Positions 9,291 to 50,802 of a stretch of 64,000 nucleotides of DNA are shown in pieces (positions within the stretch are counted from its first letter, which is position 1; each line of letters begins with the position of its first letter). The translations under genes were made by a program, and so were the position numbers. This stretch comes from an uncultured virus (IMG/VR IMGVR_UViG_3300023119_000021) (lineage: Duplodnaviria; Heunggongvirae; Uroviricota; Caudoviricetes; Crassvirales). The notes beneath the pieces are model-generated. The model was not told the DNA's origin. It saw nothing but the letters and a program-made list of their open reading frames with translations, and searched no databases. The stretch is from the IMG/VR virus record IMGVR_UViG_3300023119_000021; one strand, written 5' to 3'.

Positions 9291-10880
9291 ATGATTGAAA
9301 AAGACATCGATTTTAATGAAGATGCGAGGTATAAGTTGACAAATGGAGTCAATAATCTTGCAAATGCCGTCAAACAAACTTTAGGAGCGGCAGGAAATAC
9401 AGTTATTTTAGAGGATGAGATAGGCAGACCGCATGTAACTAAGGATGGGGTTACAGTTGCTAAGAGCATCAACCTATCAGATCCAGTGGAACATCTTGGA
9501 GCTACAGTTGTAAAGCAGGCATCTATAAAAACTGCTGACGAAGCAGGGGATGGAACTACAACTTCTATCGTTATCACACAAGAACTCATAAACAGAGCAT
9601 TCGAAAAGATAGAAAACAAGAACCTCAACGTCACCAAGCTTAGGAATGCCTTAGAGACGCTGTCCCATGATGTTATAGAAGGAATAAAGAAGAGGTCTAA
9701 GGAGGTTACTGAAGAAAACCTTAAGAGTGTAGCTACAATATCAGCAAACAACGATTCAGAGCTTGGAAATATTATAGCAGATGCATACCTAAAGGTTGGA
9801 GTTGATGGTGCTGTGACTATAGAGGAGTCTATGACAAAGGATACCTATACAGAGATTGTAGAGGGAACAAGAATCAAAAGAGGGTTTGACAGTCCATACA
9901 TGATCACGGACAAGGAAAAGAATCAAGCTGTACTTGAGAATCCACTTGTATTGATCTCCGACAAGAAGATTACCGTTGTGGAGGACATAGAGCCTTGCCT
10001 AAGAGTGGCTATGCAGTCTAAGCGTCCTATGCTAATTATATCAGATATGGAGACCGCTGTAATGAACTTGCTCAATGTGAACAAAGCAAGAGGTGTTGTA
10101 AGCGTTAATGTGGTAGCCCCAGAGGGGGTTGGGCTAAATCGATTTGAGCTTTTAGAGGACCTGGCTATCATGACAGGAGCTGTCCTGGTATCTGATGAAA
10201 CAGGGAATGACTTTACAGCAATAGACGAAAGTTTTCTTGGGGAAGCTAAAAAGGCTGTGTCTACAGATAAGGAGACTATTATTAGTTTAAAATATGAAAA
10301 AACAGCTGACGCTGTTAAAGAACGTGCCGAGATGGTTAGGGGGATATTGAAAAAGAAAGAAGACGTATCTAACACTTGGCATTATAAAGATAGACTATCA
10401 CGTCTATCAGGGGGGATTGCCGCTATTCATGTAGGAGCACTCACTGAAGTTGAAATGAAAGAGAAGAAGGACCGTGTAGAGGATGCCATATTTGCAACTC
10501 GTGCAGCATTAGAAGAAGGAATTGTAGCTGGTGGAGGAGTATCCCTGTACAACGCAGCTATGGATATGCAGACGAGATACTTCAAAGAAAAGGATAATGA
10601 AATGAAAGAAGCGTGTGCTATCCTATCAGCGGCATTAACCTCCCCTATCAAACAAATACTTGCAAATGCCTCTATGAGTTATGACGAGTTTGTGGAAAGA
10701 ATAGATAGCGTTAGAAGACGCAACTACGGATACGATGTAAAAAAGAAAAGATTTGGTAATATGTTTACAATGGGAATCATTGATCCGTTCAAGGTCACAA
10801 AGAATGCCCTACAGAACGCCATATCTGTATCTATAACAATCTTGACAACAAACTGTGTAATATCAAATAAACGAGCATGA
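9291..10880 (+). CDS. groEL: Phage-encoded chaperonin GroEL
   Basis: TKDGVTVAK, AGDGTTT, KDRVEDA, EEGIVAGGG, GIIDP; lacks the GGM tail; TATATTTG box at 9257-9264. Confidence 0.97.
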   Translation: MIEKDIDFNEDARYKLTNGVNNLANAVKQTLGAAGNTVILEDEIGRPHVTKDGVTVAKSINLSDPVEHLGATVVKQASIKTADEAGDGTTTSIVITQELINRAFEKIENKNLNVTKLRNALETLSHDVIEGIKKRSKEVTEENLKSVATISANNDSELGNIIADAYLKVGVDGAVTIEESMTKDTYTEIVEGTRIKRGFDSPYMITDKEKNQAVLENPLVLISDKKITVVEDIEPCLRVAMQSKRPMLIISDMETAVMNLLNVNKARGVVSVNVVAPEGVGLNRFELLEDLAIMTGAVLVSDETGNDFTAIDESFLGEAKKAVSTDKETIISLKYEKTADAVKERAEMVRGILKKKEDVSNTWHYKDRLSRLSGGIAAIHVGALTEVEMKEKKDRVEDAIFATRAALEEGIVAGGGVSLYNAAMDMQTRYFKEKDNEMKEACAILSAALTSPIKQILANASMSYDEFVERIDSVRRRNYGYDVKKKRFGNMFTMGIIDPFKVTKNALQNAISVSITILTTNCVISNKRA

Positions 10881-17919: not shown

Positions 17920-18120
17920 ATGCCAAGAATTGAAACATACGTTGAGGATCAACAGATATCTGATGCGGATGTACTATTAGGTAGTGATGGGGACAATAAC
18001 AACGTAACCAAAAAATTTACTGTAGGCGATCTTAAGACGTATATTATTCCGTCAGGAGGTCAGGCTGGGCAAGTTTTAAAGTCTGACGGTCTTGGTGGAG
18101 TGTATTGGGATAATCCATAA
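17920..18120 (+). CDS. Small virion-associated protein with shared N-terminal module
   Basis: MPRIETY..D..LGSDGDN..TKKFT, paralogous to 20759; GQAGQVLKSDG fibre motif. Confidence 0.65.
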   Translation: MPRIETYVEDQQISDADVLLGSDGDNNNVTKKFTVGDLKTYIIPSGGQAGQVLKSDGLGGVYWDNP

Positions 18121-19784
18121 TGAGAGTTAGAGGTACACAAAAGCAGGTTGATGATTACACAAATGACCAAGCCATATCGCCAAATGATAAGGTAATTGGT
18201 CAAGACTCTCAGTTTTTTAAACATACAAAAAATTATACTGTACAAGGATTAGCTCTTCATGTTAGAGGAGGGGGTGGTGGATATGGTCAGGTATTAACAA
18301 ATAACGGTGATGGTACTTGGAGTTTTCAAGGAGAGATTCAGACTACAACTACAACATTAGCTCCTGGAGCAACCACTACTACAACTGCAGCGCCAGGAAC
18401 TACGACAACAACTACGTCTGCTCCATTAACAACCACCACTACTACCTCAGCTCCAGTTACAACAACAACAACGCAAGCAGGAACTACAACAACGACAACT
18501 TCTGCCCCTGCAACAACCACTACCACAACTCAAGCTGGAACCACTACTACTACGACTGCGGCAGCTACTACTACAACCACCACACAGGCAGCTACTACTA
18601 CAACTACGACTGCGGCAGCTACTACTACAACTACGACACAAGCTGCTACAACAACTACAACTACGACACAAGCTGCTACAACAACTACAACTACTGCTGC
18701 TGCTACAACAACTACAACTACTCAAGCGTTTACTTCATATACGCTTCAGTATCCTGTAACAGATAACTCTACAGATTTTACTACATATGAAATAACAGAT
18801 ACATCAGGAGGTAAATGGGAAGTTACTGTTAAGGGGATTAGTTTGCTCAAATCAGCTGCAACTCCAACAATCGTTTCTGGAGGCTCTGGAGTGACAATAG
18901 GAAGTGCTGGGACAAATCAACTTAGTGAATGGGGTTATGGGGGTAATGTCGCTGTAAATGTACAGTATGGTGAAACTCTTTATGATTTATATAACCAAAC
19001 AGGCACATATACAACCAAGCAGGTTAACTTTAAAAATGGATCATCTACAGATTGGTATGTAGTTGGAGGTGGTATACATAATGATAATGAAAAAACTGTA
19101 GCAGGAACATTTTACCAACCTAATGGATACTATAGATATGGTTTTCCAGGAGCGACAATGGACTATGCTGAAGTTCAAAATGGAATAGTACAAAGTTTAG
19201 GTCAGATAACTTCATCTCCAACCACCACAACAACCACTGTGGCACCTACTACGACTACGACAACTGCTGACCCATACAATGGATTAACGCCTTTCTACGT
19301 GCAAGATAATGGAAGCGGTGGTGTATTGAGAGAAACTATTAGTGGGGCATATCAATCATGTATACCTAAATACGGAATAACCATAGAGATGTATCATGAT
19401 GGAATTTATCCATTGCCACAAGTGGGTGACAAAGTATACACTTATCCAGATCCACAGTCTTACAATACATTTACAGGATATGGTTACAAGTATCAAATAG
19501 CTACTGTTGATGGTAAAAATGGAACCTATCCTGAAGGTGCTATGCAGATGAATGATTCTAACGGTTCTGTTTCTCAAAGATGGTTTGAATGTGAAGATAC
19601 TGGAATATGGGACTTCCAAAATCCAAGTAGTATTTCTGTTAATCTTACATATACTGAAGAAGACGGAACAGTAACTACAGTATCTGTACCTTCTCAAGCA
19701 ACTCACAGGTCTCCATGTGTAAGACACCAAACATTTGTAGAGCAATATACTTTTAACAAAACAAGAGTTGGCGATTGTCCATAG
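18120..19784 (+). CDS. Mucin-like Thr-rich virion/fibre protein
   Basis: About 125-residue (T5-8 + AP/QA/AA) tract at 18342-18723, a second tract near 19221-19266, and Cys-flanked beta modules. Confidence 0.8.
   Translation: MRVRGTQKQVDDYTNDQAISPNDKVIGQDSQFFKHTKNYTVQGLALHVRGGGGGYGQVLTNNGDGTWSFQGEIQTTTTTLAPGATTTTTAAPGTTTTTTSAPLTTTTTTSAPVTTTTTQAGTTTTTTSAPATTTTTTQAGTTTTTTAAATTTTTTQAATTTTTTAAATTTTTTQAATTTTTTTQAATTTTTTAAATTTTTTQAFTSYTLQYPVTDNSTDFTTYEITDTSGGKWEVTVKGISLLKSAATPTIVSGGSGVTIGSAGTNQLSEWGYGGNVAVNVQYGETLYDLYNQTGTYTTKQVNFKNGSSTDWYVVGGGIHNDNEKTVAGTFYQPNGYYRYGFPGATMDYAEVQNGIVQSLGQITSSPTTTTTTVAPTTTTTTADPYNGLTPFYVQDNGSGGVLRETISGAYQSCIPKYGITIEMYHDGIYPLPQVGDKVYTYPDPQSYNTFTGYGYKYQIATVDGKNGTYPEGAMQMNDSNGSVSQRWFECEDTGIWDFQNPSSISVNLTYTEEDGTVTTVSVPSQATHRSPCVRHQTFVEQYTFNKTRVGDCP
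18342..18723 (+). repeat. Coding tandem repeat (ACN-rich, poly-Thr)
   Basis: Imperfect tandem units such as ACTACGACTGCGGCAGCTACTACTACAAC and ACTACGACACAAGCTGCTACAACAACTACAACT, each present twice. Confidence 0.9.
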
Positions 19785-30198: not shown

Positions 30199-30417
30199 AT
30201 GAACTATATTAGAAAGATTTCAGTAGGCGCAGATTACAAGAACGCCATGCATTATATAATAAACCAAGAGGTTTTAGGAGGGTCTTACGTTATAAGTGAT
30301 ATAGCTCAAGAACAAGAAGGATTCAGCGTTTGGGTTAAGAAAAACGAAGAGTCTGTAAAATGGAAAGAGTTTAAGGACATTCCAATAGTAGTTGAATACA
30401 ATATAAATTTAATATGA
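30199..30417 (+). CDS. Hypothetical protein
   Basis: IRKISVGADYKNAMHY; coupled to the GroES-like gene. Confidence 0.7.
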   Translation: MNYIRKISVGADYKNAMHYIINQEVLGGSYVISDIAQEQEGFSVWVKKNEESVKWKEFKDIPIVVEYNINLI

Positions 30418-30959
30418 AACCAAGATGGGATTATTTAATCAAACCACTCGGGAAGGAATACAACAACACAAAGAAAATAGCAGGAGAAAGCTTCGTAGTC
30501 AACACGTCTTTGGAGGATGCAACCTTTGTGAACAGGCTGGGAGTTGTGTGTGCGGTGCCGAATGGTGGACAAGTACCTGTGGGTAGCATTGTCGTAGTAC
30601 ATCATAATGTATTTAGAACTTACCTTGACATGAAGGGTAATAAAAGAAAGAGTAACGAATACTTTCGTGATGATGAGTATTTAGTTAGTCCCGAAAGAAT
30701 ATACATGTATAAGGATGATGAAGGGTGGAAAACTACAAAAGACTATTGCTTTATTTCTCCTGTCGATTATAATCAAGATAGTGAAATTTATAGATCAGAC
30801 AAGAAAGAAGAGGAGCATGTGGGAATTGTAAAACATAGTAGTATCTTTGAGAAAGGAGAGAAAGTAGGCTTTACAAGAAACTCAGAGTACGAGTTTACTA
30901 TAGACGATGAAAGATTCTATAGAATGAAGCATAACGATATTTGTATTAAATTTAATTAA
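30414..30959 (+). CDS. Second, enlarged GroES-like protein (probably two GroES-fold halves)
   Basis: YLIKP...GVVCAVP...VGSIVVVHH, then CFISPV...GIVKH...GEKVGF...IDDERFYRM. Confidence 0.6.
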   Translation: MKPRWDYLIKPLGKEYNNTKKIAGESFVVNTSLEDATFVNRLGVVCAVPNGGQVPVGSIVVVHHNVFRTYLDMKGNKRKSNEYFRDDEYLVSPERIYMYKDDEGWKTTKDYCFISPVDYNQDSEIYRSDKKEEEHVGIVKHSSIFEKGEKVGFTRNSEYEFTIDDERFYRMKHNDICIKFN

Positions 30960-40094: not shown

Positions 40095-40952
40095 ATGGCA
40101 CTAACAGATCAACAATATTACAGCGATAGCGCCAACTGGGGAGATAACCAGTTTGTTCTATTAAAAGACATTATCAATAACTTCAATGCATTTTATGTAG
40201 GGGATGATAAAATAATTAATGACGTTCAGCGTTATGATGTTGTGTTTCATGCAAAGAGAGGTCTACAAGAGCTTCATTACGATGCTTTAAAGGACGTTAG
40301 AGCGCTTGAATTAGAACTTCCTGATGATTTACAGCTTGAGCTTCCAAAAGACTTTGTAAGGCTTGTTAGACTGTCTTGGGTGGACGATAGGGGTAGGCTG
40401 CATCCTATGATGATGGACACAGAAACCACTATTGCAAAGGCATACCTTCAGGATGACAACTACAACATTATATTTGACAATGACGGTGCAGCTACAGAGG
40501 GTACTTCTGTAATCGACACAAAGTTATCACAAGTTCAAAGCGTAGATAATGATACATTCACAAACCTTGATTATGAGTTTTTTGGAGGTAGATTTGGAAT
40601 GGCTACAGAGAAAACTAATGTCAATGGCAAATACAATATCGACAAGAACTTAGGATATATTAGATTCAGTTCTGAGGTTAAAGGAAAGGCTATTGTTATA
40701 GAATATATTACGGATGGTTTAGAGTACCTTACAGAAGACGAATTAAAAGTGAATAAGCTTGCTGAAGACTTTTTATATAAATATATTGCATATCAAATAA
40801 TTCAATACAAGTTTGGCGTTCAAGAATACATTGTTAGACGAATGAAGAATGAACAATTTGCAGCAATGAAGAACATGAAAATCAGAATGATGGATATACA
40901 CCCATTCGATTTAGTTCATGCATTCAGAGGACGTAACAAGTGGATTAAATAA
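40095..40952 (+). CDS. Tail ring/tubular protein (putative)
   Basis: FHAKRGLQE..YD, LPKDFVRLVR, IEYITDG; position before the nozzle gene. Confidence 0.65.
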   Translation: MALTDQQYYSDSANWGDNQFVLLKDIINNFNAFYVGDDKIINDVQRYDVVFHAKRGLQELHYDALKDVRALELELPDDLQLELPKDFVRLVRLSWVDDRGRLHPMMMDTETTIAKAYLQDDNYNIIFDNDGAATEGTSVIDTKLSQVQSVDNDTFTNLDYEFFGGRFGMATEKTNVNGKYNIDKNLGYIRFSSEVKGKAIVIEYITDGLEYLTEDELKVNKLAEDFLYKYIAYQIIQYKFGVQEYIVRRMKNEQFAAMKNMKIRMMDIHPFDLVHAFRGRNKWIK

Positions 40953-43900
40953 TGAAAATACAAAACCTATTTACATCTGGTAAGATGAATAAGGATCTCG
41001 ATGAGAGACTTGTTCCTCAAGGAGAATACAGAGACGCATTAAACGTTAGAGTTGCTAATTCAACAGGATCTGACGTAGGGGCTATTGAAAACGCTTTATC
41101 TAACAGCGCATTAACTTCCTTAGAACTAGGGTCTAACGCTGCTTGTATTGGAGCTGTATCAGATGATGAAGATAGAATTATATATTGGTTTGTTAAGTCA
41201 GATACAGGTAGCTATATATGCTATTATGATGAAAAAATACAAGAGTCAGGTTTTATTCTTAGTGATACTAGACTGCTTACTAATGAGAATCCGAAAGAGA
41301 GTGTATTGAACTTCAATCAGTCTTATATGATAGAAGGCAACATTCTTACTGATGCCGACAATCTTAAGAAGTTTCTTTACTTTACCGATGGATTTAATCC
41401 GCCTAGAAAAATAAACATAGCAAGAGCCAAGTCTCTAGATCCAAATAGTTTTGAAGATGAAGATATCAATGTTATCGTAAAACCGCCTTTATTTTCTCCT
41501 TCATTAAAAAACGCAACTAATGACCAAGACTTAGATGAGAACAATCTAAAAGAAAAGATACTCATGTTTGCTTACAGGTATGTGTATCTTGATGAGGAGA
41601 AGAGTGCTTTGTCTCCATTTTCTGAAATTGGGTTTCTCCCAAAATCTTTTTCTTACGACTTTATAGGAGCCATCAATCATTCGATGGAAAATAACTATAA
41701 CGCAATAGACGTAAAATACAATACAGGTAGTCATTTAGTTAAAAAAATAGACATTGTCTTTAAGGAGTCTGGAAATAACAATATATATCTAGCTGCAACT
41801 ATAGATAAGGCAGAGAAAAAATATGACAACGATTCTAACCAGATATTTAGCTTCAAGAACAATAGCATATACAAAGTATTGCCAGAAGACGAAATATATA
41901 GACTGTATGACAATGTTCCTTTGACAGCTAAAACGCAGGAAATAATCAGCAATAGACTTGTATACGGTAACTATACAGAAAACTTCAATCTAACCGATTC
42001 AGATGGCAATGAAGTGATACTGGACTTAGATGCAGATTATGAATTTTCTGGCTCTGATAATGACGACCCTAAACCTACGGCTAGAAGCGGTAGGGATTAC
42101 GAAATAGGGGTGGTTTACTTAGACGATTACGGCAGGTCAACAACAACTATCTTAAGCGACAATAATCACACCTTTGTACCGCATTCTTTGTCTACATATC
42201 AGAACGAACTGACAGCGACTATATCTAGTAAAGCGCCTAGTTTTGCTAAGTATTACAGATTTTTTGTAAAGCAAACGCAAGAAAACGATTATCATGTAAT
42301 AAGTCCTATAACAATTTACGATGATTCTGACTATACTTGGATAAGACTAGAAGGTGATGACGTTCAAAAAATTGGTAATCAAGAATACTTGATAGTAAAG
42401 GCAGACCTATCTGGACCGAAGGCAAACGAAATAAAAGTAAAAATACTAGACAAAGGCGTAAAGAGTAAAAACTTTCTAGAGGATTCAAGCTACACAGGAC
42501 CAACTCAACAAGAATCTGGATATTACATTAAAATAAATGGATACAATGTTGATATAAATGAGACTTCTTACACCAAATACTTAATTAGTGATTTCGATGT
42601 ATCTTCAAATGATTACAGCACAAAGTTTAGCGGTCAAGCAACTAGCTATATAGAAGGACCTTTCTTTTACACTTTAGAGGACGAGGCTGTTAAAACTCTT
42701 ACAGTAAATAGCACCTATAGCGGAACTTGCGATAGAAGATATGAGATAAAAATACAAGAATCTGGAACGACAGATAAGTTTGTATGGAGGGGATGGGATA
42801 TAAATCAAAATAGCAAAGGAGCATGGTCTTCTCAAATAGATTGCTCTACATCTCCAATAACGTTAGACACTGGAATAACTGTATCTTTTGGGGTGACTAC
42901 TGGTCACTTAGTTGGAGATAAATTTACATTCAACTATAAAACAGACATAACGACTACAGAAAACGGATTTAATGATTTCGATCAGAGAACGTATATTACT
43001 TTACCTGGCTTCCCTGTCAATGACGAGAGTATTACTCCAGGAAGTAAAATAGCACTGTACTATAAGGAGTATAAGGGAGTAAATGAAAAGGAAATAGTTG
43101 TAGAGGTTGATGATGTTTACTATTCTGTAAACGAATATTCAAATATAGAGGAATGGTATTGGGAAGAAGGATACGATCAGATAATACAAAGTGATTTAGT
43201 GCCAGACGAAAATATCAGATTTAGAAGAGGTATATATACTGACTCTACAGATTCTGATAACACTTTTCAAATTACAGGGGCATCTACAGATAAGCTGTCT
43301 ATGATAATAGAATCTAGAGCAGAACAGCCTGATGGATTCGCTGGACTTGGAAAAATCGTAAATAAAAGAGCTTACGCTACTGCTGAGATGAGTATTTTAA
43401 AAAGAGGTACTGACTCTTTCGTTGTTTTGGAGACAATTCCAAGCAAAACAAACGCAGACGTTTTTTACGAAATACCAGGAACTTATGAGATAAACGATTG
43501 TGGATATCATTTAGGAATAAAGGGAAGGGATGTTGACCAAACATTTAACACTTCAGCTAAAATATATCTAAACTTTTTTAACGCATATACTTTTAGCAAT
43601 GGATTTGAATGCTACAAAATCAGAGATGCTTTTATATCTGACTCTATTAGTATTAAAAACAGACCATTAAGTTATGTAGAAAATTACAGAAAGAACAATA
43701 GAGTTTGTTCTGTAACATATTCTGATGTATATGAGCAATCCACAAATTACAATGGTCTGAATGAGTTTAACTTAGCCAAAGTAAACTACATAGATTTGGA
43801 TGATGAATATGGATCTATACAGAAAATACACTCAAGAGATACAAATCTCATTGTTTTCCAGGATAATAAAGTAAGCCAGTTGTTATATAACAAATCTGTT

Positions 43901-45169
43901 ATATATAATGCCGATGGAAGCGGAAATGTATCTCAGAATTTAAACATATTTGGTCAACAGATCCCTTTTGTTGGAGAGTATGGTATATCAAAAAACCCAC
44001 ATTCTTTTTCAAGTTGGGCAAGTAGAATGTATTTTGCTGACGAAAGAAGAGGAGCTGTACTTAGGCTAAGTCAAAATGGAATCACGGAGATATCTCAATA
44101 TGGTATGCGTGATTGGTTTAGAGATAACTTAAAAACAGAAAATAAAAATGTAATCGTAGGGGGATACGATCCTTTTACTGGTCAATATGTATTGTCTATA
44201 AAAAATCCTGTAGAAGAATGGAGAGAAGATGCCTTTGAGTGTGACCAATCTTCTTGTGATTTGGAGGCAATTATATATCAGAAAACAACTACTACAACAA
44301 CAACAAGCACTACGACTACGACAACTACTACAGCAGCGCCTTCAACTACGTTAACTCTATATGCTGACGTTTCTACTAGTACAAATCCACTGCAAGGATG
44401 GGGATCTAGTACTGATGCTTGCGCTGGAACTGGGACACCTATAACTGTATATCTATCTACAGCAGCTTCTTCTTTACAACAAGCATACACGAACGGATAT
44501 ACACTATATTTAGATTCTGGATTAACAACTCCTTACGCTGGAAACAATACGTATTTTAAAGATGTAAGTTCTCCAGACTCAGGAAATTCATTGCAAGTTG
44601 GTAATGATGGAGCTATAGCTACATTTAGCGCTTGTCCAGCACCACCACCACCCCCAATTCAATTAGATTTATATATGTCTAGTCTAAATTCTGGCGGATG
44701 GACACAGTCTGGTTTAGCTTGTGCAGGAGAAGGAGTGTTGACAACAGTATATATAGACGGAAGTTCTAACGCTACTAATCTTTATCAAGCATATCAAAAT
44801 CAAGATGTTCTTTACGGAGATAGTAATTTAAGCGTTCCTTTTATAGGTCAAAATTCATATTTCAAAACAGTTTCTACGGCTAGTGCTGGTAGTGCTGTAA
44901 AAATAACTAGTGGAGGATTAATATCTGATTATCAAGATTGTGCTCCTGGAACAACTGAGCCTCCGACAGGTTCTTACAATCTATTCTTCTGTGATACAGG
45001 CATAGGAGCTGGATTGAGAGTATTGGATGATGGAAATATTGATCCAGGAATGGTAATAGAACATAATGGAATTTGCTACATTGTAGATACGTATTCTAAC
45101 ATAACAGCAGGAGCATTTAGTGACTACACAGATTATTCGGATTGTCAAGAATGTCTAGATAATTTATAA
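40952..45169 (+). CDS. Tail nozzle/stabilisation protein (P22 gp10-like), N-terminal part, with Thr tract and Cys modules appended
   Basis: KMNKDLDERLVPQGEYRDALN, FTDGFNPPRKIN, YGISKNP.SF, GGYDPF..YVLS; then poly-Thr at 44285-44332. Confidence 0.8.
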   Translation: MKIQNLFTSGKMNKDLDERLVPQGEYRDALNVRVANSTGSDVGAIENALSNSALTSLELGSNAACIGAVSDDEDRIIYWFVKSDTGSYICYYDEKIQESGFILSDTRLLTNENPKESVLNFNQSYMIEGNILTDADNLKKFLYFTDGFNPPRKINIARAKSLDPNSFEDEDINVIVKPPLFSPSLKNATNDQDLDENNLKEKILMFAYRYVYLDEEKSALSPFSEIGFLPKSFSYDFIGAINHSMENNYNAIDVKYNTGSHLVKKIDIVFKESGNNNIYLAATIDKAEKKYDNDSNQIFSFKNNSIYKVLPEDEIYRLYDNVPLTAKTQEIISNRLVYGNYTENFNLTDSDGNEVILDLDADYEFSGSDNDDPKPTARSGRDYEIGVVYLDDYGRSTTTILSDNNHTFVPHSLSTYQNELTATISSKAPSFAKYYRFFVKQTQENDYHVISPITIYDDSDYTWIRLEGDDVQKIGNQEYLIVKADLSGPKANEIKVKILDKGVKSKNFLEDSSYTGPTQQESGYYIKINGYNVDINETSYTKYLISDFDVSSNDYSTKFSGQATSYIEGPFFYTLEDEAVKTLTVNSTYSGTCDRRYEIKIQESGTTDKFVWRGWDINQNSKGAWSSQIDCSTSPITLDTGITVSFGVTTGHLVGDKFTFNYKTDITTTENGFNDFDQRTYITLPGFPVNDESITPGSKIALYYKEYKGVNEKEIVVEVDDVYYSVNEYSNIEEWYWEEGYDQIIQSDLVPDENIRFRRGIYTDSTDSDNTFQITGASTDKLSMIIESRAEQPDGFAGLGKIVNKRAYATAEMSILKRGTDSFVVLETIPSKTNADVFYEIPGTYEINDCGYHLGIKGRDVDQTFNTSAKIYLNFFNAYTFSNGFECYKIRDAFISDSISIKNRPLSYVENYRKNNRVCSVTYSDVYEQSTNYNGLNEFNLAKVNYIDLDDEYGSIQKIHSRDTNLIVFQDNKVSQLLYNKSVIYNADGSGNVSQNLNIFGQQIPFVGEYGISKNPHSFSSWASRMYFADERRGAVLRLSQNGITEISQYGMRDWFRDNLKTENKNVIVGGYDPFTGQYVLSIKNPVEEWREDAFECDQSSCDLEAIIYQKTTTTTTTSTTTTTTTTAAPSTTLTLYADVSTSTNPLQGWGSSTDACAGTGTPITVYLSTAASSLQQAYTNGYTLYLDSGLTTPYAGNNTYFKDVSSPDSGNSLQVGNDGAIATFSACPAPPPPPIQLDLYMSSLNSGGWTQSGLACAGEGVLTTVYIDGSSNATNLYQAYQNQDVLYGDSNLSVPFIGQNSYFKTVSTASAGSAVKITSGGLISDYQDCAPGTTEPPTGSYNLFFCDTGIGAGLRVLDDGNIDPGMVIEHNGICYIVDTYSNITAGAFSDYTDYSDCQECLDNL

Positions 45170-45178
45170 TAAAAAGTA

Positions 45179-46051
45179 ATGGCAAACAGAACGGTTGTAA
45201 TAAAAGGTAAAAATGTTGGTCTAGATATCAATAGGATAGCTATATACAGAAATTCAATTAATCCAGACAACTTAGTATCGATAGTAACTAAGGCTGCATT
45301 TATGTCTGGGTACGAATTTGAGGATGACGATTCCCAAGATCAATATGTTTGTCAATGTGATGACCCATGCAAAACTGTTGTTAACTTATTTTTAAGAGAG
45401 AAAAATTATCCTCCTACCGTTAATATAACTGGCGCAACTAGTGCTTTAGTTGGATCTAACATAACATTGACAGCTACTGCAACAGATCCGAATGGAGATG
45501 TCGTTACTTACGAATGGAACGATGGAACTACAAGTTCAACAAATTCTGTAACCTCTGGTTCAGCTGGGGATGTAAACTATAGTGTTGTTGCTACGGATGT
45601 AGTTGGTGATTGGGGAAATGACAGTCATACAGTAAATTGGTATACAACAACAACAACAACCACAGCTGCACCAACAACTACAACTACCACATCAGCTCCA
45701 ACAACCACAACAACCACTTCTGGTGGAGGTGGAGGTGGAACCACAACAACTACCACTACAGTAGATCCTGGAACAACGACTACTACGACTACAACAACTA
45801 CCACAACAACGACAACTACAACTTCAGCGCCAACAACTACAACAACAACGTGCTTGAATTGTACTCAATACACAATAACTAATGCTGGATCTAACTTTAT
45901 GTCATTCTCGTATACAGATTGCTCAAGTCTTAATACGCTAGGTGTTAGTTTAGGTGCTGGTAGTTCTCAAACATTCTGTTCTTGTACTTATCCAAGTCAA
46001 ACGTCTGGAGACAGCAATTACAATATTCAAGATCAAGGAATCTGTCCATAA
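45179..46051 (+). CDS. Ig/PKD-like domain protein with a long poly-Thr tract
   Basis: PPTVNITG..TLTATATDPNGD..TYEW (Ig-like); about 69-residue Thr-rich tract at 45644-45850; Cys-rich C-terminal module. Confidence 0.8.
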   Translation: MANRTVVIKGKNVGLDINRIAIYRNSINPDNLVSIVTKAAFMSGYEFEDDDSQDQYVCQCDDPCKTVVNLFLREKNYPPTVNITGATSALVGSNITLTATATDPNGDVVTYEWNDGTTSSTNSVTSGSAGDVNYSVVATDVVGDWGNDSHTVNWYTTTTTTTAAPTTTTTTSAPTTTTTTSGGGGGGTTTTTTTVDPGTTTTTTTTTTTTTTTTTSAPTTTTTTCLNCTQYTITNAGSNFMSFSYTDCSSLNTLGVSLGAGSSQTFCSCTYPSQTSGDSNYNIQDQGICP

Positions 46052-46068
46052 AATGAAAATTAAATTAA

Positions 46069-46974
46069 ATGAAATACATATGCGCTCAACCTGCTACGAA
46101 ATATTATGCGTGGCAGATAGACACGATGCTTCATAGTTTTAGGACCACTGGAGTTAATTTAGACGATGTTCATATAGTTTGCGCAATACATGGAGAAATA
46201 GACCCATACTTTGACAAGCTTATGAAGAAGTATACTGGAGTGTTGTTTTCTTTTTATGAGGATACACGATACGACAAAACATATATATCTTCCATAAGAC
46301 CTCATATCTTAAAAAAACACTTTAAGGCTTTTCCTGATTTAGAGGGAGAAACATTTTTTTATCATGATTGTGATATAGTTTTTACAAAACCATTGCCTTT
46401 AGAAAATATTATTGATAACGATATCACGTATTTATCAGATACAATATCATACATAGGATATAGCTATATAAAATCTAAAGGGGATGATGTTCTACAGAAG
46501 ATGCTTCATATTGTGGGAATAGACGAGGCTACTGTAAAAAAGAATCAAGAAAACTCTGGAGGAGCACAATATTTAATCAAAGGAGTTGATAAGTATTTTT
46601 GGCATGATGTCGAAAAAGATTCCACTACACTGTTTAAAGATATAACAGAACTTAATATAGAGAAAAAAGCCAAAGACCCAACTCACCATGAAATACAAAT
46701 ATGGTGTGCGGATATGTGGGCTGTTTTGTGGAATATATGGAAAAGAAACATGGAAACAAAAGTTGTGAAGGAGCTAGATTTTTCTTGGTCAGTAACTCCT
46801 ATAGGGGAATGGCACAAAAGAGCTATATATCATAATGCTGGTGTAGTAAATAGTTCAACTGGTATGTTCTACAAGGGTGATTACTTAAATGATTTGCCAA
46901 ATTTAAACTTAGAAATATCTCCTAAAAAATGCTCTTATAATTATTACAAAATAATCCAATCGGCTCTAATATGA
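46069..46974 (+). CDS. GT-A glycosyltransferase, resembling peptide O-glycosyltransferases of the SGT1 (GT96)/HPAT (GT95) type
   Basis: DxD motif YHDCDIVF; YYAWQ..MLHSF; Y..SIRP; GGAQYLI; WCADMWA; IYHNAG. Confidence 0.7.
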   Translation: MKYICAQPATKYYAWQIDTMLHSFRTTGVNLDDVHIVCAIHGEIDPYFDKLMKKYTGVLFSFYEDTRYDKTYISSIRPHILKKHFKAFPDLEGETFFYHDCDIVFTKPLPLENIIDNDITYLSDTISYIGYSYIKSKGDDVLQKMLHIVGIDEATVKKNQENSGGAQYLIKGVDKYFWHDVEKDSTTLFKDITELNIEKKAKDPTHHEIQIWCADMWAVLWNIWKRNMETKVVKELDFSWSVTPIGEWHKRAIYHNAGVVNSSTGMFYKGDYLNDLPNLNLEISPKKCSYNYYKIIQSALI

Positions 46975-48020
46975 GAGATATTGAACAAATAATAAGGGAA
47001 GCTTTTGGAAAGCATAAAATATCACAAATGCAACTTGACCCTAATGGTCACTGTAATGCTGGGTGTTGGTTCTGTCCTGTATCTATAAAAGGCAATCCGA
47101 GTCATGCTAAGAAGCCTATGCCTGTTGATTTATTAGAAAAAATAATAAGCAATATAATAGAAGAAAGAGATCGTGAGGATGGGCTGGTATCTAAAAATTT
47201 TGGAGGATTTTACACTTCACATTACAATGAAACTCTTCTTTACCCATACCTAGAGGATTTTTTCAAGATACTTAGGAGATATAAGCTGATGACAATGATT
47301 CTTTCGAACGGATCAACGTTGACTCCAAACAAAACAGACTTAATAAAAGAGTACAAAGACGTTATAAATGGAGTTAATTTGAATGTTCCGATACTTAGTA
47401 ATGACGAACTTTGGGCAAAAAGAGCTGGAATGAAAAAAGGAATGTACCCCAATATGATAAGAAACATAAACTATTTTATATCGGAAATTCCAGACTGGGC
47501 TACAAACGGAATATTTAGCATAGGAATGAACGGTATAAATAATTCAGCACTACACTCTAATGGGGGATGGATAGAAACTGGAGAAAAGTTTCCTCAAGAT
47601 ATTGATTTAGATAACGAGCAAGGTGAGAATGCTAGAGAAGTGCGTACAGCAAAGCAAATGTTTCCAACGGTAAGGAATATATATGGAGTGCCTCACTTGA
47701 TAGATAGAGCTGGGCTAATGGATGGGATTATAGACAACAAGAAAGCCATACATAAATACCTAAAAAGAGGTGATGAAAACGCTAGAGTTATTGGTTGTGG
47801 AAACGGAATAGAGGTTGGAGGCAGACCTGTAGGGTGGATACACATAAACTCAATTGGAGAAGCATTTCTGTGCTGTAATGATTACGACATGGAAGTTGTT
47901 ATTGGTGATTTGTCAAAACAGCGTCTAAGAGATTTTTGGGGTAATGAGAATCATATTCAAAAAATAAAAGAGTCTTACGAAGGTATGTGTACTGTTTGCG
48001 CTTCAGCAAGGTTTGAGTAA
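46971..48020 (+). CDS. Radical SAM protein with SPASM/twitch domain
   Basis: CNAGCWFC (CX3CX2C), LSNG, DRAG, C...CCND..IGDL...CTVC; ATGA-like overlap with the GT gene. Confidence 0.92.
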   Translation: MRDIEQIIREAFGKHKISQMQLDPNGHCNAGCWFCPVSIKGNPSHAKKPMPVDLLEKIISNIIEERDREDGLVSKNFGGFYTSHYNETLLYPYLEDFFKILRRYKLMTMILSNGSTLTPNKTDLIKEYKDVINGVNLNVPILSNDELWAKRAGMKKGMYPNMIRNINYFISEIPDWATNGIFSIGMNGINNSALHSNGGWIETGEKFPQDIDLDNEQGENAREVRTAKQMFPTVRNIYGVPHLIDRAGLMDGIIDNKKAIHKYLKRGDENARVIGCGNGIEVGGRPVGWIHINSIGEAFLCCNDYDMEVVIGDLSKQRLRDFWGNENHIQKIKESYEGMCTVCASARFE

Positions 48021-48065: not shown

Positions 48066-50042
48066 ATGGCAAACTCTGGGATAAAAAAAATTACAAAACT
48101 CCGTAAATACATAAACGGAAGTCCTACTGACGAAGTCAAAGACAACGTAATAACAGATAGTGATTACATCCCTAATTACGTGTCTACAAAAGAATGTCCA
48201 ATTGGATGTGATGCTATAGTTAGTGGTAGTGTTTTGATTAATGCGTCAAGCACTGGTTCTGCTGAGTTTGCTTCTACAACAACAACTACAGCTGCAACAA
48301 CTACTACTACTACGTCTAGTCCTGTTTCTGCTGTTAAAGACTACGGAATACAAAATAATGACTTAAATAATCCCGTTACTTTAGTGTATGCTGATGAGTT
48401 CAATGTTACACAAGAGGTAATAGTTCAACCGAACACTTCAAGTTCTATATCCTCATCCACAGAGCCTTATAGAGCATCTGGAGCTACATCTATATTTATT
48501 GAATCACAAAGTCCTTTGTATATTCCAACTACAACTACAACAACCGTAGCTCCTACAACAAGTGACGACTACGTTATTGACAATAGCAATGGAACAGAAA
48601 CTGTTGTTGTTTCGTTGAGGCAAATGGGATCTTCTACAGCTACAGAGACAGAGATAAAACCTGGAAAAATAGTTAAGGTTAGCTCAGACGACACGGTAAC
48701 TAGAGTCTCGGGTAGTACAGATGCTGTGATTACTCAATCAAATACTAGTATCGCACCTACACAAACAGAGTATACTATTACAAATAATAGCTTTTACGAG
48801 TCAGATGTAATAGAATATAGACCATACTTAGGTGTTACTGATGAAATAGAGTTAAGTCCAGGAGAGACTATAACAATAAAATCACAAGATCCACCAAAAA
48901 CTTCTAGCGAGGTTGCGTTTGATACGTTTACTGGTAATGGTACAGATGACACTTTCCAATTAGCTACTGAGCCTAAGAATCAAAATAACATACAAGTGTA
49001 TATTGATGACAGCTTTCAAGGCGTTGAAGAGTACAGTATATCTGGAACTGATTTGACCTTCAATACTCCTCCAGCTAACAATTCAACCATAGAGGTTACT
49101 GAAACAAAGCTTTCCGTTACATCAGGGGGCAATGCTACACAAGAGGCTGACCCTGCAACAATAGAGACAAGGATATGCAATCAAAACGTTATATATAATG
49201 ATAGTGAATCGAACGCCATCTTCTCATATCAAAACTGTAATCAAGAGCAAGAGAAAATATCTTTAGAACCTCATGAATCAGCTACTGTTTCATCTATAGG
49301 AGAGCCTACATTAATAACGTCTGAAAGTCCAAATGTTGGAACTAATTTTGCTGTAGAGACTATTGAAAAGGAAATAGGTACAAGCGGTTCAGCAACCCCA
49401 GTAATTCCAAAAACAACTACTACAACTACAACTACTACTGCAGCTCCTACTACAAAAGCACCAAACACTCAAACAAACGTTGTTCAGCCAGTAGTTACTG
49501 ATTTCCCTTCTGGTGAGCCTCAAGAGATAAAAGAGTCTGGTTTAGGAAGGCATAATGCTTCTAAATGGTTCCCTAAGACAATTAAAGTTCCTATTGATAA
49601 AAAAACTGGTCAATTCAAATTCATATCATATGATAGCCCAGCTTCTATGACGTTATATAAGGTTAAAGATGGAAGCAATCTACTGTTAGATGTTTCAATA
49701 CTCACCAACGGCTATAATGGTAGATATCAGCAAATAATGAGAACTAATCTCATTGGAGAAGGTATGTCTCAAACTGAAGCTAACGAGTACACTAATGACG
49801 ATGGAGCTAAAAGAGTTGAGGCAAGAAAACTTGGTAGAGTTAAAAGAAGATTAATTGGATGGAAGGAATTATATAATCCATTCGGAAACAAATGGCACAC
49901 AGAGTTTGTGTTAAACAAAGTAACGTCCAATGATTACGTAACTGTTGAAGTTTATCAAGCATCATACAATGGAGATTCTTCTGGAGGGAATCAGGCTATT
50001 AGTTATGTAGCTAGGTTCGAAGTAACTGGAATACAAAGCTAA
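48066..50042 (+). CDS. Virion protein with three poly-Thr tracts and repeated small beta modules
   Basis: Tracts near 48275, 48527 and 49413; repeated Y.I.N.....V.Y...E..L.P module; one VYID-type fibre repeat. Confidence 0.8.
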   Translation: MANSGIKKITKLRKYINGSPTDEVKDNVITDSDYIPNYVSTKECPIGCDAIVSGSVLINASSTGSAEFASTTTTTAATTTTTTSSPVSAVKDYGIQNNDLNNPVTLVYADEFNVTQEVIVQPNTSSSISSSTEPYRASGATSIFIESQSPLYIPTTTTTTVAPTTSDDYVIDNSNGTETVVVSLRQMGSSTATETEIKPGKIVKVSSDDTVTRVSGSTDAVITQSNTSIAPTQTEYTITNNSFYESDVIEYRPYLGVTDEIELSPGETITIKSQDPPKTSSEVAFDTFTGNGTDDTFQLATEPKNQNNIQVYIDDSFQGVEEYSISGTDLTFNTPPANNSTIEVTETKLSVTSGGNATQEADPATIETRICNQNVIYNDSESNAIFSYQNCNQEQEKISLEPHESATVSSIGEPTLITSESPNVGTNFAVETIEKEIGTSGSATPVIPKTTTTTTTTTAAPTTKAPNTQTNVVQPVVTDFPSGEPQEIKESGLGRHNASKWFPKTIKVPIDKKTGQFKFISYDSPASMTLYKVKDGSNLLLDVSILTNGYNGRYQQIMRTNLIGEGMSQTEANEYTNDDGAKRVEARKLGRVKRRLIGWKELYNPFGNKWHTEFVLNKVTSNDYVTVEVYQASYNGDSSGGNQAISYVARFEVTGIQS

Positions 50043-50046
50043 AAAT

Positions 50047-50802
50047 ATGGCAGAAAATACAATAACATTTGATGAAAAAGTATCTGGATGGACTTCATTC
50101 CATTCCTATATACCTGAGTATATGACTAACTTGAACAATAACTTTTTTACATTCAAGGACGGTCAGCTTTATAAGCACAATGTTGAGACTAACGGTAGAA
50201 ACACTTACTATGGTACATCTTACAACACTGAGGTAGAGATTAGCTCAAATGCTGCTCCATCAGAGGTTAAGATATACAAGACTATAGAGATTGAAGGAAA
50301 TAGTCCTGGATGGGACGTGACAGTCATAACAGATTTAGACAGAGGTCATATTGATAAGTCGTCTTTTACTAAAAACGAAGAGCTTGACAATACATACAAC
50401 GAAGGTATCTACTCTACACACATCAGAAGAAACACGGATGACGAAGTAAACACAGAACTATTGTCTGTACAAGGGATAGGTAACTTAGATCTAATAGCAG
50501 GTACCACCTATACTTTTGGAACAGTACCAACAACAACATCAGTTGGAGATGTACTGTATCAAGCAGTAGGAGGATCATATAACAGAATAGGAACAATAAC
50601 GAATAAAGACGGAACTACAATTACAGTTGGTACAGCAGCCATTGTGCCTAGTGTAAACGACTTTATATTCTCAGCTAAGAGCCCTATAGCAGAGTCTTAT
50701 GGACTCAAAGGATACTATGCAAGCGTAAGGCTTGTAAGTAACAGTACAAGCGCTGTAGAGCTATATGCTGTCAATAGTGAAGTTAGCAAAAGCTTCTCAT
50801 AA
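50047..50802 (+). CDS. Tail nozzle/stabilisation protein, C-terminal part
   Basis: TITFDE..GWTSFHSY.PE..NNFFTFKDGQLYKH, KIYKTIEIEG, ESYGLKGYY. Confidence 0.7.
   Translation: MAENTITFDEKVSGWTSFHSYIPEYMTNLNNNFFTFKDGQLYKHNVETNGRNTYYGTSYNTEVEISSNAAPSEVKIYKTIEIEGNSPGWDVTVITDLDRGHIDKSSFTKNEELDNTYNEGIYSTHIRRNTDDEVNTELLSVQGIGNLDLIAGTTYTFGTVPTTTSVGDVLYQAVGGSYNRIGTITNKDGTTITVGTAAIVPSVNDFIFSAKSPIAESYGLKGYYASVRLVSNSTSAVELYAVNSEVSKSFS

Follow-up and report, generated by a model that had tools for sequence, protein, structure and literature searches.

A soluble phage glycosyltransferase family remotely related to HPAT/SGT1 that accompanies threonine runs on virion proteins

The window analyzed here, a stretch of 64,000 nucleotides from an uncultured crAss-like virus, encodes a soluble glycosyltransferase of the GT-A type among its virion genes. 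We consider it very probable that this enzyme O-glycosylates threonine tags on the phage's own virion proteins, starting with the first sugar. Sugar on the threonine runs is the most likely reading because, in the phage groups compared, the gene has been gained or lost together with such runs on particle proteins.

Fold, active site and nearest relatives of the enzyme

The open reading frame is intact, begins with ATG and encodes 301 amino acids (Table 1). The motifs quoted in the preliminary description are all present in the order that it gave, with YYAWQ at residue 12, MLHSF at 20, SIRP at 75, YHDCDIVF at 98, GGAQYLI at 164, WCADMWA at 212 and IYHNAG at 253. Its statement that the protein is soluble and lacks a transmembrane anchor agrees with a maximal 19-residue Kyte-Doolittle mean of 0.61. 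Across 101 aligned rows, little or no variation is seen at residues D100, D102, G165, Q167, W212, M216, F238, G258 and K269. Both aspartates of the DxD motif are found in every member of the three groups that make up the alignment (43/43, 34/34 and 24/24; 101/101 rows). Additionally, H255 is likely to be the C-terminal metal-binding histidine of retaining GT-A enzymes.

The protein matches the full-length profile of phrog_4417 (E=4.6e-72; residues 1-298 against 1-290 of 293), a family without an annotated function. At E<=0.001 the family takes in 2562 of 2925 candidates, which form 849 clusters at 50% identity. Among 50,697 GenBank phage records 77 match, and all 60 of the matches listed are without a product name. 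No NCBIfam model matches the enzyme. A Pfam scan of the 301-aa protein returned nothing credible, with GT8 (PF01501) and PF23452 both unmatched (none at E<=1 for PF23452); a Pox_RNA_pol match at E 0.042 was rejected as below the cut-off. Sequence searches of the PDB yielded a single match at E 1.3, which is not credible, and TAL-repeat matches, which were discarded as a short-motif artefact.

In a FastTree of 105 selected domains, whose root is unresolved, the window protein falls within a supported aquatic-phage clade of 36 rows. The same tree contains a clade of 24 rows that are mostly from Bacillota phages and a Bacteroidota chromosomal clade of 38 rows. A diverged structural relative, Orf49 of Lactobacillus phage LP65 (BFVD Q5ULR5; TM 0.72, 22% identity), suggests that the family is wider than sequence searches reveal. 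In other members the transferase domain is fused to GT2, GT6, GT32-type, methyltransferase or radical SAM domains. GT2, GT6, GT32-type and methyltransferase domains are fused or adjacent at L008:8975-11289 and in P0124, P0128, P0134, P0154 and P0171. We also observed an unannotated family of 291-aa proteins in 28 of 88 loci; in its representative (L060:7754-8626) it lies directly after the gene.

The AlphaFold2 model, built on a 100-row alignment, reached a pLDDT of 98, and on this model the protein belongs to the GT-A glycosyltransferase superfamily. The top matches in the VIA search were GT-A enzymes aligned over residues 1-301 at an rmsd of 3.3-4.4, with Z scores of 14.5 for glycogenin, 14.4 for Skp1 alpha-galactosyltransferase, 14.1 for LgtC, 13.9 for WbbM and 13.0 for UGGT. 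By both Foldseek and VIA the best solved-structure matches are GT8, GT24 and GT6 enzymes (Z 12-14.5, including alpha3GalT), which share the DxD and the C-terminal histidine with the phage protein. They differ from it in that Foldseek gave TM scores of at most 0.52 at 9-15% identity and in that their sequence profiles scored poorly (see below). No GT95 or GT96 entry is among the fold-search matches listed.

By sequence profile and modeled structure, the nearest named family is HPAT/SGT1 (PF23452), of which the protein is a remote relative and not a member. The preliminary description had proposed this resemblance without computing it, and it held when computed. The Atlas model matched a plant HPAT cluster (99% PF23452) with a TM score of 0.76 over 267 residues. 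For profile comparison, metagenomic ORFs with the SGT1-type motif were collected, giving 19 domains after de-duplication from 41. These are PF23452 family members, since 10 of 10 scanned exceed the PF23452 cut-off, and not characterized enzymes; they are presumably of eukaryotic origin. Against these 19 domains the family profile scored 89.5% in hhalign (E 2e-6, 205 columns), with the counterparts of YFxWQ, SIRP, DxD, GG and WCADMW facing each other. With the collecting motif cut away the score was 92.7%, and four-row subsets gave 35-92%. The control alignments, which were small (3-10 rows), scored 3.8% for four GT8 sequences (E 0.011), 0.2% for ten GT2 sequences and 1.7% for three DUF7164 sequences. 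DUF7164, which had been raised by language-model features, may be a more distant relative. The profiles favor HPAT/SGT1 over GT8 and GT2, while among the solved structures listed GT8, GT24 and GT6 enzymes came out best.

The distance to PF23452 is nonetheless large. Just 1 of 100 aligned relatives matches this family (E 1.3e-4), and our own PF23452-type profile gives the window protein 7.6 bits. Together with the missing PF23452 match of the protein itself, these values make it a remote GT95/GT96 relative and not a member. GT8 (PF01501) is absent among the 25 of 31 families listed for the 100 relatives. Because identity is only about 15%, the GT95/GT96 comparison offers no usable root. HPATs are described as the founders of GT95 and as Golgi type II membrane proteins related to GT96, which includes SGT1, and both are described as peptide O-glycosyltransferases that initiate on peptide hydroxyls (PMC8012813). 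Like HPAT (CAZy GT95) and SGT1 (GT96), the phage enzyme has a GT-A domain and the same motif order, and it is presumed to share with them the placing of a first sugar on hydroxy-amino-acid repeats. Unlike them, it is soluble rather than held by a type II Golgi anchor, and it pairs with poly-Thr, whereas their acceptor repeats are Hyp or Ser-Hyp4. The evidence supports a protein that acts like HPAT/SGT1 in everything testable, yet stands outside that family.

Table 1. Coordinates of the enzyme, its motifs, its neighbors and the chromosomal precursor loci (window positions unless a locus is named)
Feature	Position	Strand	Remark
phrog_4417-family GT-A glycosyltransferase, soluble	46069..46974	+	ORF, fold, profiles; remote HPAT/SGT1 (PF23452) relative
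DxD, D100-C101-D102	46366..46374	+	putative metal and nucleotide-sugar binding
W-x-A-[DE]-M-W, residues 212-217	46702..46719	+	aligns with WISEMY of SGT1-type proteins
H255-N-A-G motif	46831..46842	+	His in 100/101 rows
290-aa protein, mucin-like block at residues 156-224	45179..46051	+	directly upstream; candidate acceptor
crAss-type muzzle protein	40952..45169	+	PF25731 E 4.8e-10; phrog_14478 virion structural protein; candidate virion acceptor
658-aa protein, 4 Thr runs, conserved 45-aa N-terminal module	48066..50042	+	candidate acceptor
554-aa protein amid fibre-like genes	18120..19784	+	94 Thr in 16 runs; enzyme 26 kb away; candidate acceptor
Radical SAM/SPASM protein	46971..48020	+	PF04055 and PF13186; overlaps enzyme stop codon; possible tailoring partner
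Muzzle C-terminal domain protein	50047..50802	+	PF25729 E 7.5e-10; far border of inserted block
RiPP precursor loci (examples)	L487:6446-6715, L528:7609-7854, L543:7636-7869, L536:7596-7841, L509:2250-2495		GTDB Bacteroidota

Threonine runs in the window, across phages and in matched capsid families

In the window, the gene lies in the virion (tail) module of a crAss-like phage, past terminase-, portal- and capsid-like genes, between the muzzle gene (PF25731) and the gene for the muzzle C-terminal domain (PF25729). The muzzle is split here into an N-terminal part (40952-45169) and a C-terminal domain (50047-50802), with Thr proteins, the transferase and the radical SAM gene in between. Contigs in Flavobacteriales bins contain the nearest GTDB matches (71% and 68%) and also carry the muzzle gene, which points to a Bacteroidota host.

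The Thr-repeat neighbors reported earlier are real. Four window proteins carry Thr runs, and the one encoded at 45179-46051, directly upstream of the enzyme, has 6 runs of at least 4 Thr, the longest of 17, with 49 Thr in its mucin-like block. The muzzle protein carries a T7/T8 tract of 2 runs at residues 1112-1127 (44285-44332), before its C-terminal extension. All four ACN codons are used, so the runs are not a simple DNA microsatellite. The window capsid protein has no Thr tail. The radical SAM/SPASM family occurs in 6 of 88 loci and is fused to the transferase domain in P0144.

The 45-aa N-terminal module of the 658-aa protein (window 48066-48215) ends in D-P/S-D-Y-I-P...C-P and was found in 26 ORFs from 24 loci, including Chryseobacterium phage MA9V-3; further sites are L002:9606, 10354 and 10709, L005-L010 and L085-L097. 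The module often runs straight into poly-Thr, in some cases occurs as a fusion with the muzzle C-terminal domain, and is possibly a docking peptide for fibres. Elsewhere in the window, the product of 9291-10880 looks GroEL-like by eye, and a 181-aa protein 20 kb away (30414-30959) may be its co-chaperonin.

To measure the link between gene and runs, the best 80 of 316 IMG/VR loci with the gene were compared with 80 control loci chosen by TCN repeat. A run of six threonines (T6) was present in 58 of 80 gene loci vs 3 of 80 controls, one of which also has the gene, and a T5 run was present in 63 vs 7. In 56 of the 80 loci the ORF directly upstream of the gene carries T5, and T5 is present in 25 of 30 clusters at 75% identity. 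This association between gene and Thr repeats is stronger than could be known from the window itself, where it was first noticed, and the capsid contrasts below concur with it. Cultured phages gave a similar picture: T5 or longer was found in 11 of the 12 fetched from the 77 matching records, the typical site being the C-terminal end of a capsid or tail-tube protein (examples are bIL285, 1706, iLp84, phiFL1A, CHPC836 and phiCTP1). The twelfth, 521B, has PTTV repeats only, on an Ig-domain protein encoded directly upstream. Among the best 80 of 133 GTDB loci, all 13 labeled as Bacillota contain T5. Within the clade of the window protein, a search with the muzzle C-terminal domain gave 13 of 13 loci with both gene and Thr runs; six of these are on contigs already in the first set, and the search yielded no gene-less control.

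The association is one-way, as most poly-Thr viral ORFs have no gene nearby. In the reverse comparison the gene was found in 7 of 80 loci chosen by ACN repeat vs 1 of 80 controls, which is not significant (p=0.064), and of the 42 loci where an ORF of at least 150 aa contains T8, only 7 have the gene. Conversely, the fetched DNA of 7 of the 80 gene loci shows no Thr-rich stretch. Two of these seven are cut short upstream, one (G071, a complete genome) has 27 tract matches elsewhere, and the remaining four are tract-free, incomplete records (5-56% complete).

Thr runs are also found on maturation proteases, a portal protein and holin-like proteins (L690:3376-4500, L694:4918-6039, L693:1434-3023, L696:18983-19564 and L692:18718-19329) and on what is likely a single-strand binding protein, which implies that some acceptors would lie off the particle surface. 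In Staphylococcus phage RQ1 (L690:9620-9931), TPWB06 (L694:9720-9926) and VPE25 (L691:8462-8620), the gene for the tail tube or capsid has its stop overlapped by a long mucin-like Thr ORF that lies in a different frame. The junction in RQ1 and TPWB06 reads CCC-TAA, a +1 frameshift site in phage tail genes. Programmed frameshifting may lengthen the tag. In a Lactiplantibacillus prophage (L546:8001-8876 region), the Thr tails are intact, while ORF calling from ATG gave just a short frame inside the gene; the gene probably uses a non-ATG start.

Matched capsid families allowed gene and tag to be compared among close relatives. One siphophage capsid family was sampled with 51 loci at 56-100% identity. 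Eight contain the gene, and all eight encode a capsid with a poly-Thr C-terminus; in the other 43, T5 is absent from every ORF on the same strand. Of these 43, ten were dropped because they end less than 3.5 kb downstream, leaving 33 that are informative. The Thr-tailed capsid is therefore found in 8/8 gene loci vs 0/33 informative gene-less loci, a contrast whose Fisher p of 1e-8 overstates the independence of the loci. On a capsid tree built with the tails excluded, the gene requires 5 changes, 4 of them forced by supported branches, indicating repeated joint gain or loss of gene and tag. A further family, the capsid of Enterococcus phages, was examined in 80 of its 104 loci. The tail is present in 73 near-identical loci and the gene in 69 of these, the other 4 ending within 155 bp, and 7 relatives at 83-86% have neither tail nor gene (one of these ends 53 bp after the family's gene). 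This family amounts to about one more independent contrast. The bIL285 tail protein, with at least 194 distant relatives, was left out of the controls.

Proposed activity and alternative explanations

The enzyme would be a cytoplasmic, metal-dependent GT-A transferase, presumably made late, that draws a nucleotide sugar from the host pool. With a divalent metal at the DxD motif, it would place the first sugar onto threonine hydroxyls while the tracts are unfolded, either ahead of assembly or in the course of it. Its acceptors in the window would be the muzzle extension and the three mucin-like proteins; those in Bacillota phages would be capsid and tail-tube proteins at their C-termini. Sugar configuration would probably be retained, by analogy with the structural neighbors in GT8, GT6 and GT24, which are retaining enzymes. 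The fusions and neighbors of GT2, GT6, GT32-type, methyltransferase and radical SAM type suggest that some phages make longer or tailored glycans; adjoining GT2/GT6/GT32-type enzymes could extend the glycan and the radical SAM protein, where present, could tailor it. The outcome would be a particle with mucin-like glycosylated bristles. These might shield it against proteases, grazers, antibodies or host sensors, stiffen flexible fibres, or serve adhesion.

The tracts could also be modified in some way other than by an initiating sugar, either with a sugar-phosphate or other group or by extension of a sugar placed by the host. GT-A folds do include phosphotransferases (CpsY and GNPTAB, at Z 9-10) as well as chain extenders (LARGE1, WbbM and LgtC, at Z 13-14), and Bacteroidota have a general protein O-glycosylation system. 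However, HPAT/SGT1, closest both by structure and by profile, initiates on peptide hydroxyls; several Bacillota phages have no second glycosyltransferase annotated in the fetched module; and the pairing of gene and tag persists across unrelated hosts. We regard this alternative as unlikely. The gene might instead be a passenger that modifies a host surface receptor, lipoteichoic acid or phage DNA, with the Thr tracts as co-travelling linkers. A single recombination event could move both, as the gene usually sits right behind a Thr-tract gene (56/80), and LPS and glycan enzymes are among the best solved-structure matches. But the tails belong to two or three different genes, which can be as much as 2-3.5 kb from each other and have genes without a tag in between; one tract protein of the window is 26 kb away and the tracts of G071 are far from the gene; gene-less relatives are without any tails; and the enzyme has no membrane anchor. 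We judge a passenger role to be very unlikely.

A non-catalytic role, as a chaperone or adaptor with a glycosyltransferase fold that binds Thr tracts during assembly, would fit the insertion of the gene amid assembly genes, often beside tail chaperones or head-tail adaptors, and the tracts on proteases and portals. Such a protein would hardly be expected to keep DxD, GAQ, W-x-x-[DE]-M-W and His-x-x-Gly invariant or nearly so in 101 rows, or to be fused to GT2, GT6, GT32-type, methyltransferase and radical SAM domains, and this explanation appears extremely improbable.

Chromosomal relatives and the wider setting

Relatives encoded on Bacteroidota chromosomes point to peptide acceptors independently of the phages, through their location in RiPP clusters. 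A match to a C39 peptidase transporter, LanB or LanC was found in 39 of 59 Bacteroidota chromosomal loci; as background, C39 matches occur in 18 of 61 sampled Bacteroidota genomes, at 34 places in total. The chromosomal domain is usually fused to a second domain, in proteins of mostly 450-770 aa. NCBIfam and Pfam matches at the scanned RiPP loci include transporters, HlyD, thiol-disulfide and lanthionine enzymes, a pinensin-type leader and further glycosyltransferases. A pattern search gave double-glycine-type precursors in 21 loci (examples in Table 1), plus one false-looking match. The cores of these precursors often start Thr/Ser-rich, and four contain Thr runs of 5-13; all were counted at loci with the gene, and lanthipeptide cores are Thr/Ser-rich anyway.

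The chromosomal loci resemble glycocin systems, in which RiPPs are S- or O-glycosylated, in having double-glycine-leader precursors, C39 transporters and disulfide or lanthionine enzymes beside the transferase. They differ in that known glycocin glycosyltransferases are GT2 enzymes, whereas here an HPAT-related domain, usually fused to a second domain, is found in Bacteroidota. The ten characterized glycocins come from Bacillota (PMC9576775). A broader picture can be offered only tentatively, and we hold it to be possible rather than probable: an ancient family of soluble peptide O-glycosyltransferases that reads a Thr-run tag, serving Bacteroidota in the glycosylation of secreted ribosomal peptides (a glyco-RiPP class not yet described), carried by unrelated phages as a portable kit of enzyme and tag (the latter sometimes appended by ribosomal frameshifting) that makes their capsids, tails and fibres into mucin-like glycoproteins, and giving rise to a membrane-anchored eukaryotic branch, the extensin enzymes HPAT and SGT1 of plants and algae.

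Virion glycosylation has a precedent. As far as the accessible portions of the sources go, mycobacteriophages glycosylate proteins of the capsid and the tail tube with their own enzymes, lowering antibody binding (PMC12363180, PMC13313380), and virion glycosylation is described there for mycobacteriophages and suggested for other actinobacteriophages. Like the systems of Che8, Corndog and Myrna, the present one has a phage-encoded glycosyltransferase among structural genes. The mycobacteriophage enzymes apparently belong to a different family, as no Mycobacterium phage is among the 77 matching records, judged by organism names. Unlike those systems, the present one pairs a single gene with a poly-Thr tag that can be seen in siphoviruses, herelleviruses, a Chryseobacterium phage and crAss-like phages. 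No description of the family, of poly-Thr virion tags or of such RiPP enzymes was found in the full-text literature, a body that leaves most subscription journals outside. On the proposed reading, virion glycosylation would here have a distinct enzyme family, a readable tag and a bacterial RiPP branch.

The cultured, food-grade dairy phages bIL285 (a prophage of Lactococcus IL1403, in which the gene is orf45), 1706 (also from Lactococcus) and iLp84 (from Lacticaseibacillus) make the proposed reading directly and cheaply testable. The family also offers small soluble relatives of GT95/GT96 for structural work, and directs attention to a class of glycosylated RiPPs in Bacteroidota that has yet to be explored. 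If the reading is true, a soluble enzyme that glycosylates such a short tag would give protein O-glycosylation a simple bacterial tool, and a phage family without an assigned function would gain one. Virion glycosylation would then extend to dairy, gut and aquatic phages and, since the tag is readable in sequence, glycosylated particles would be predictable from genomes.
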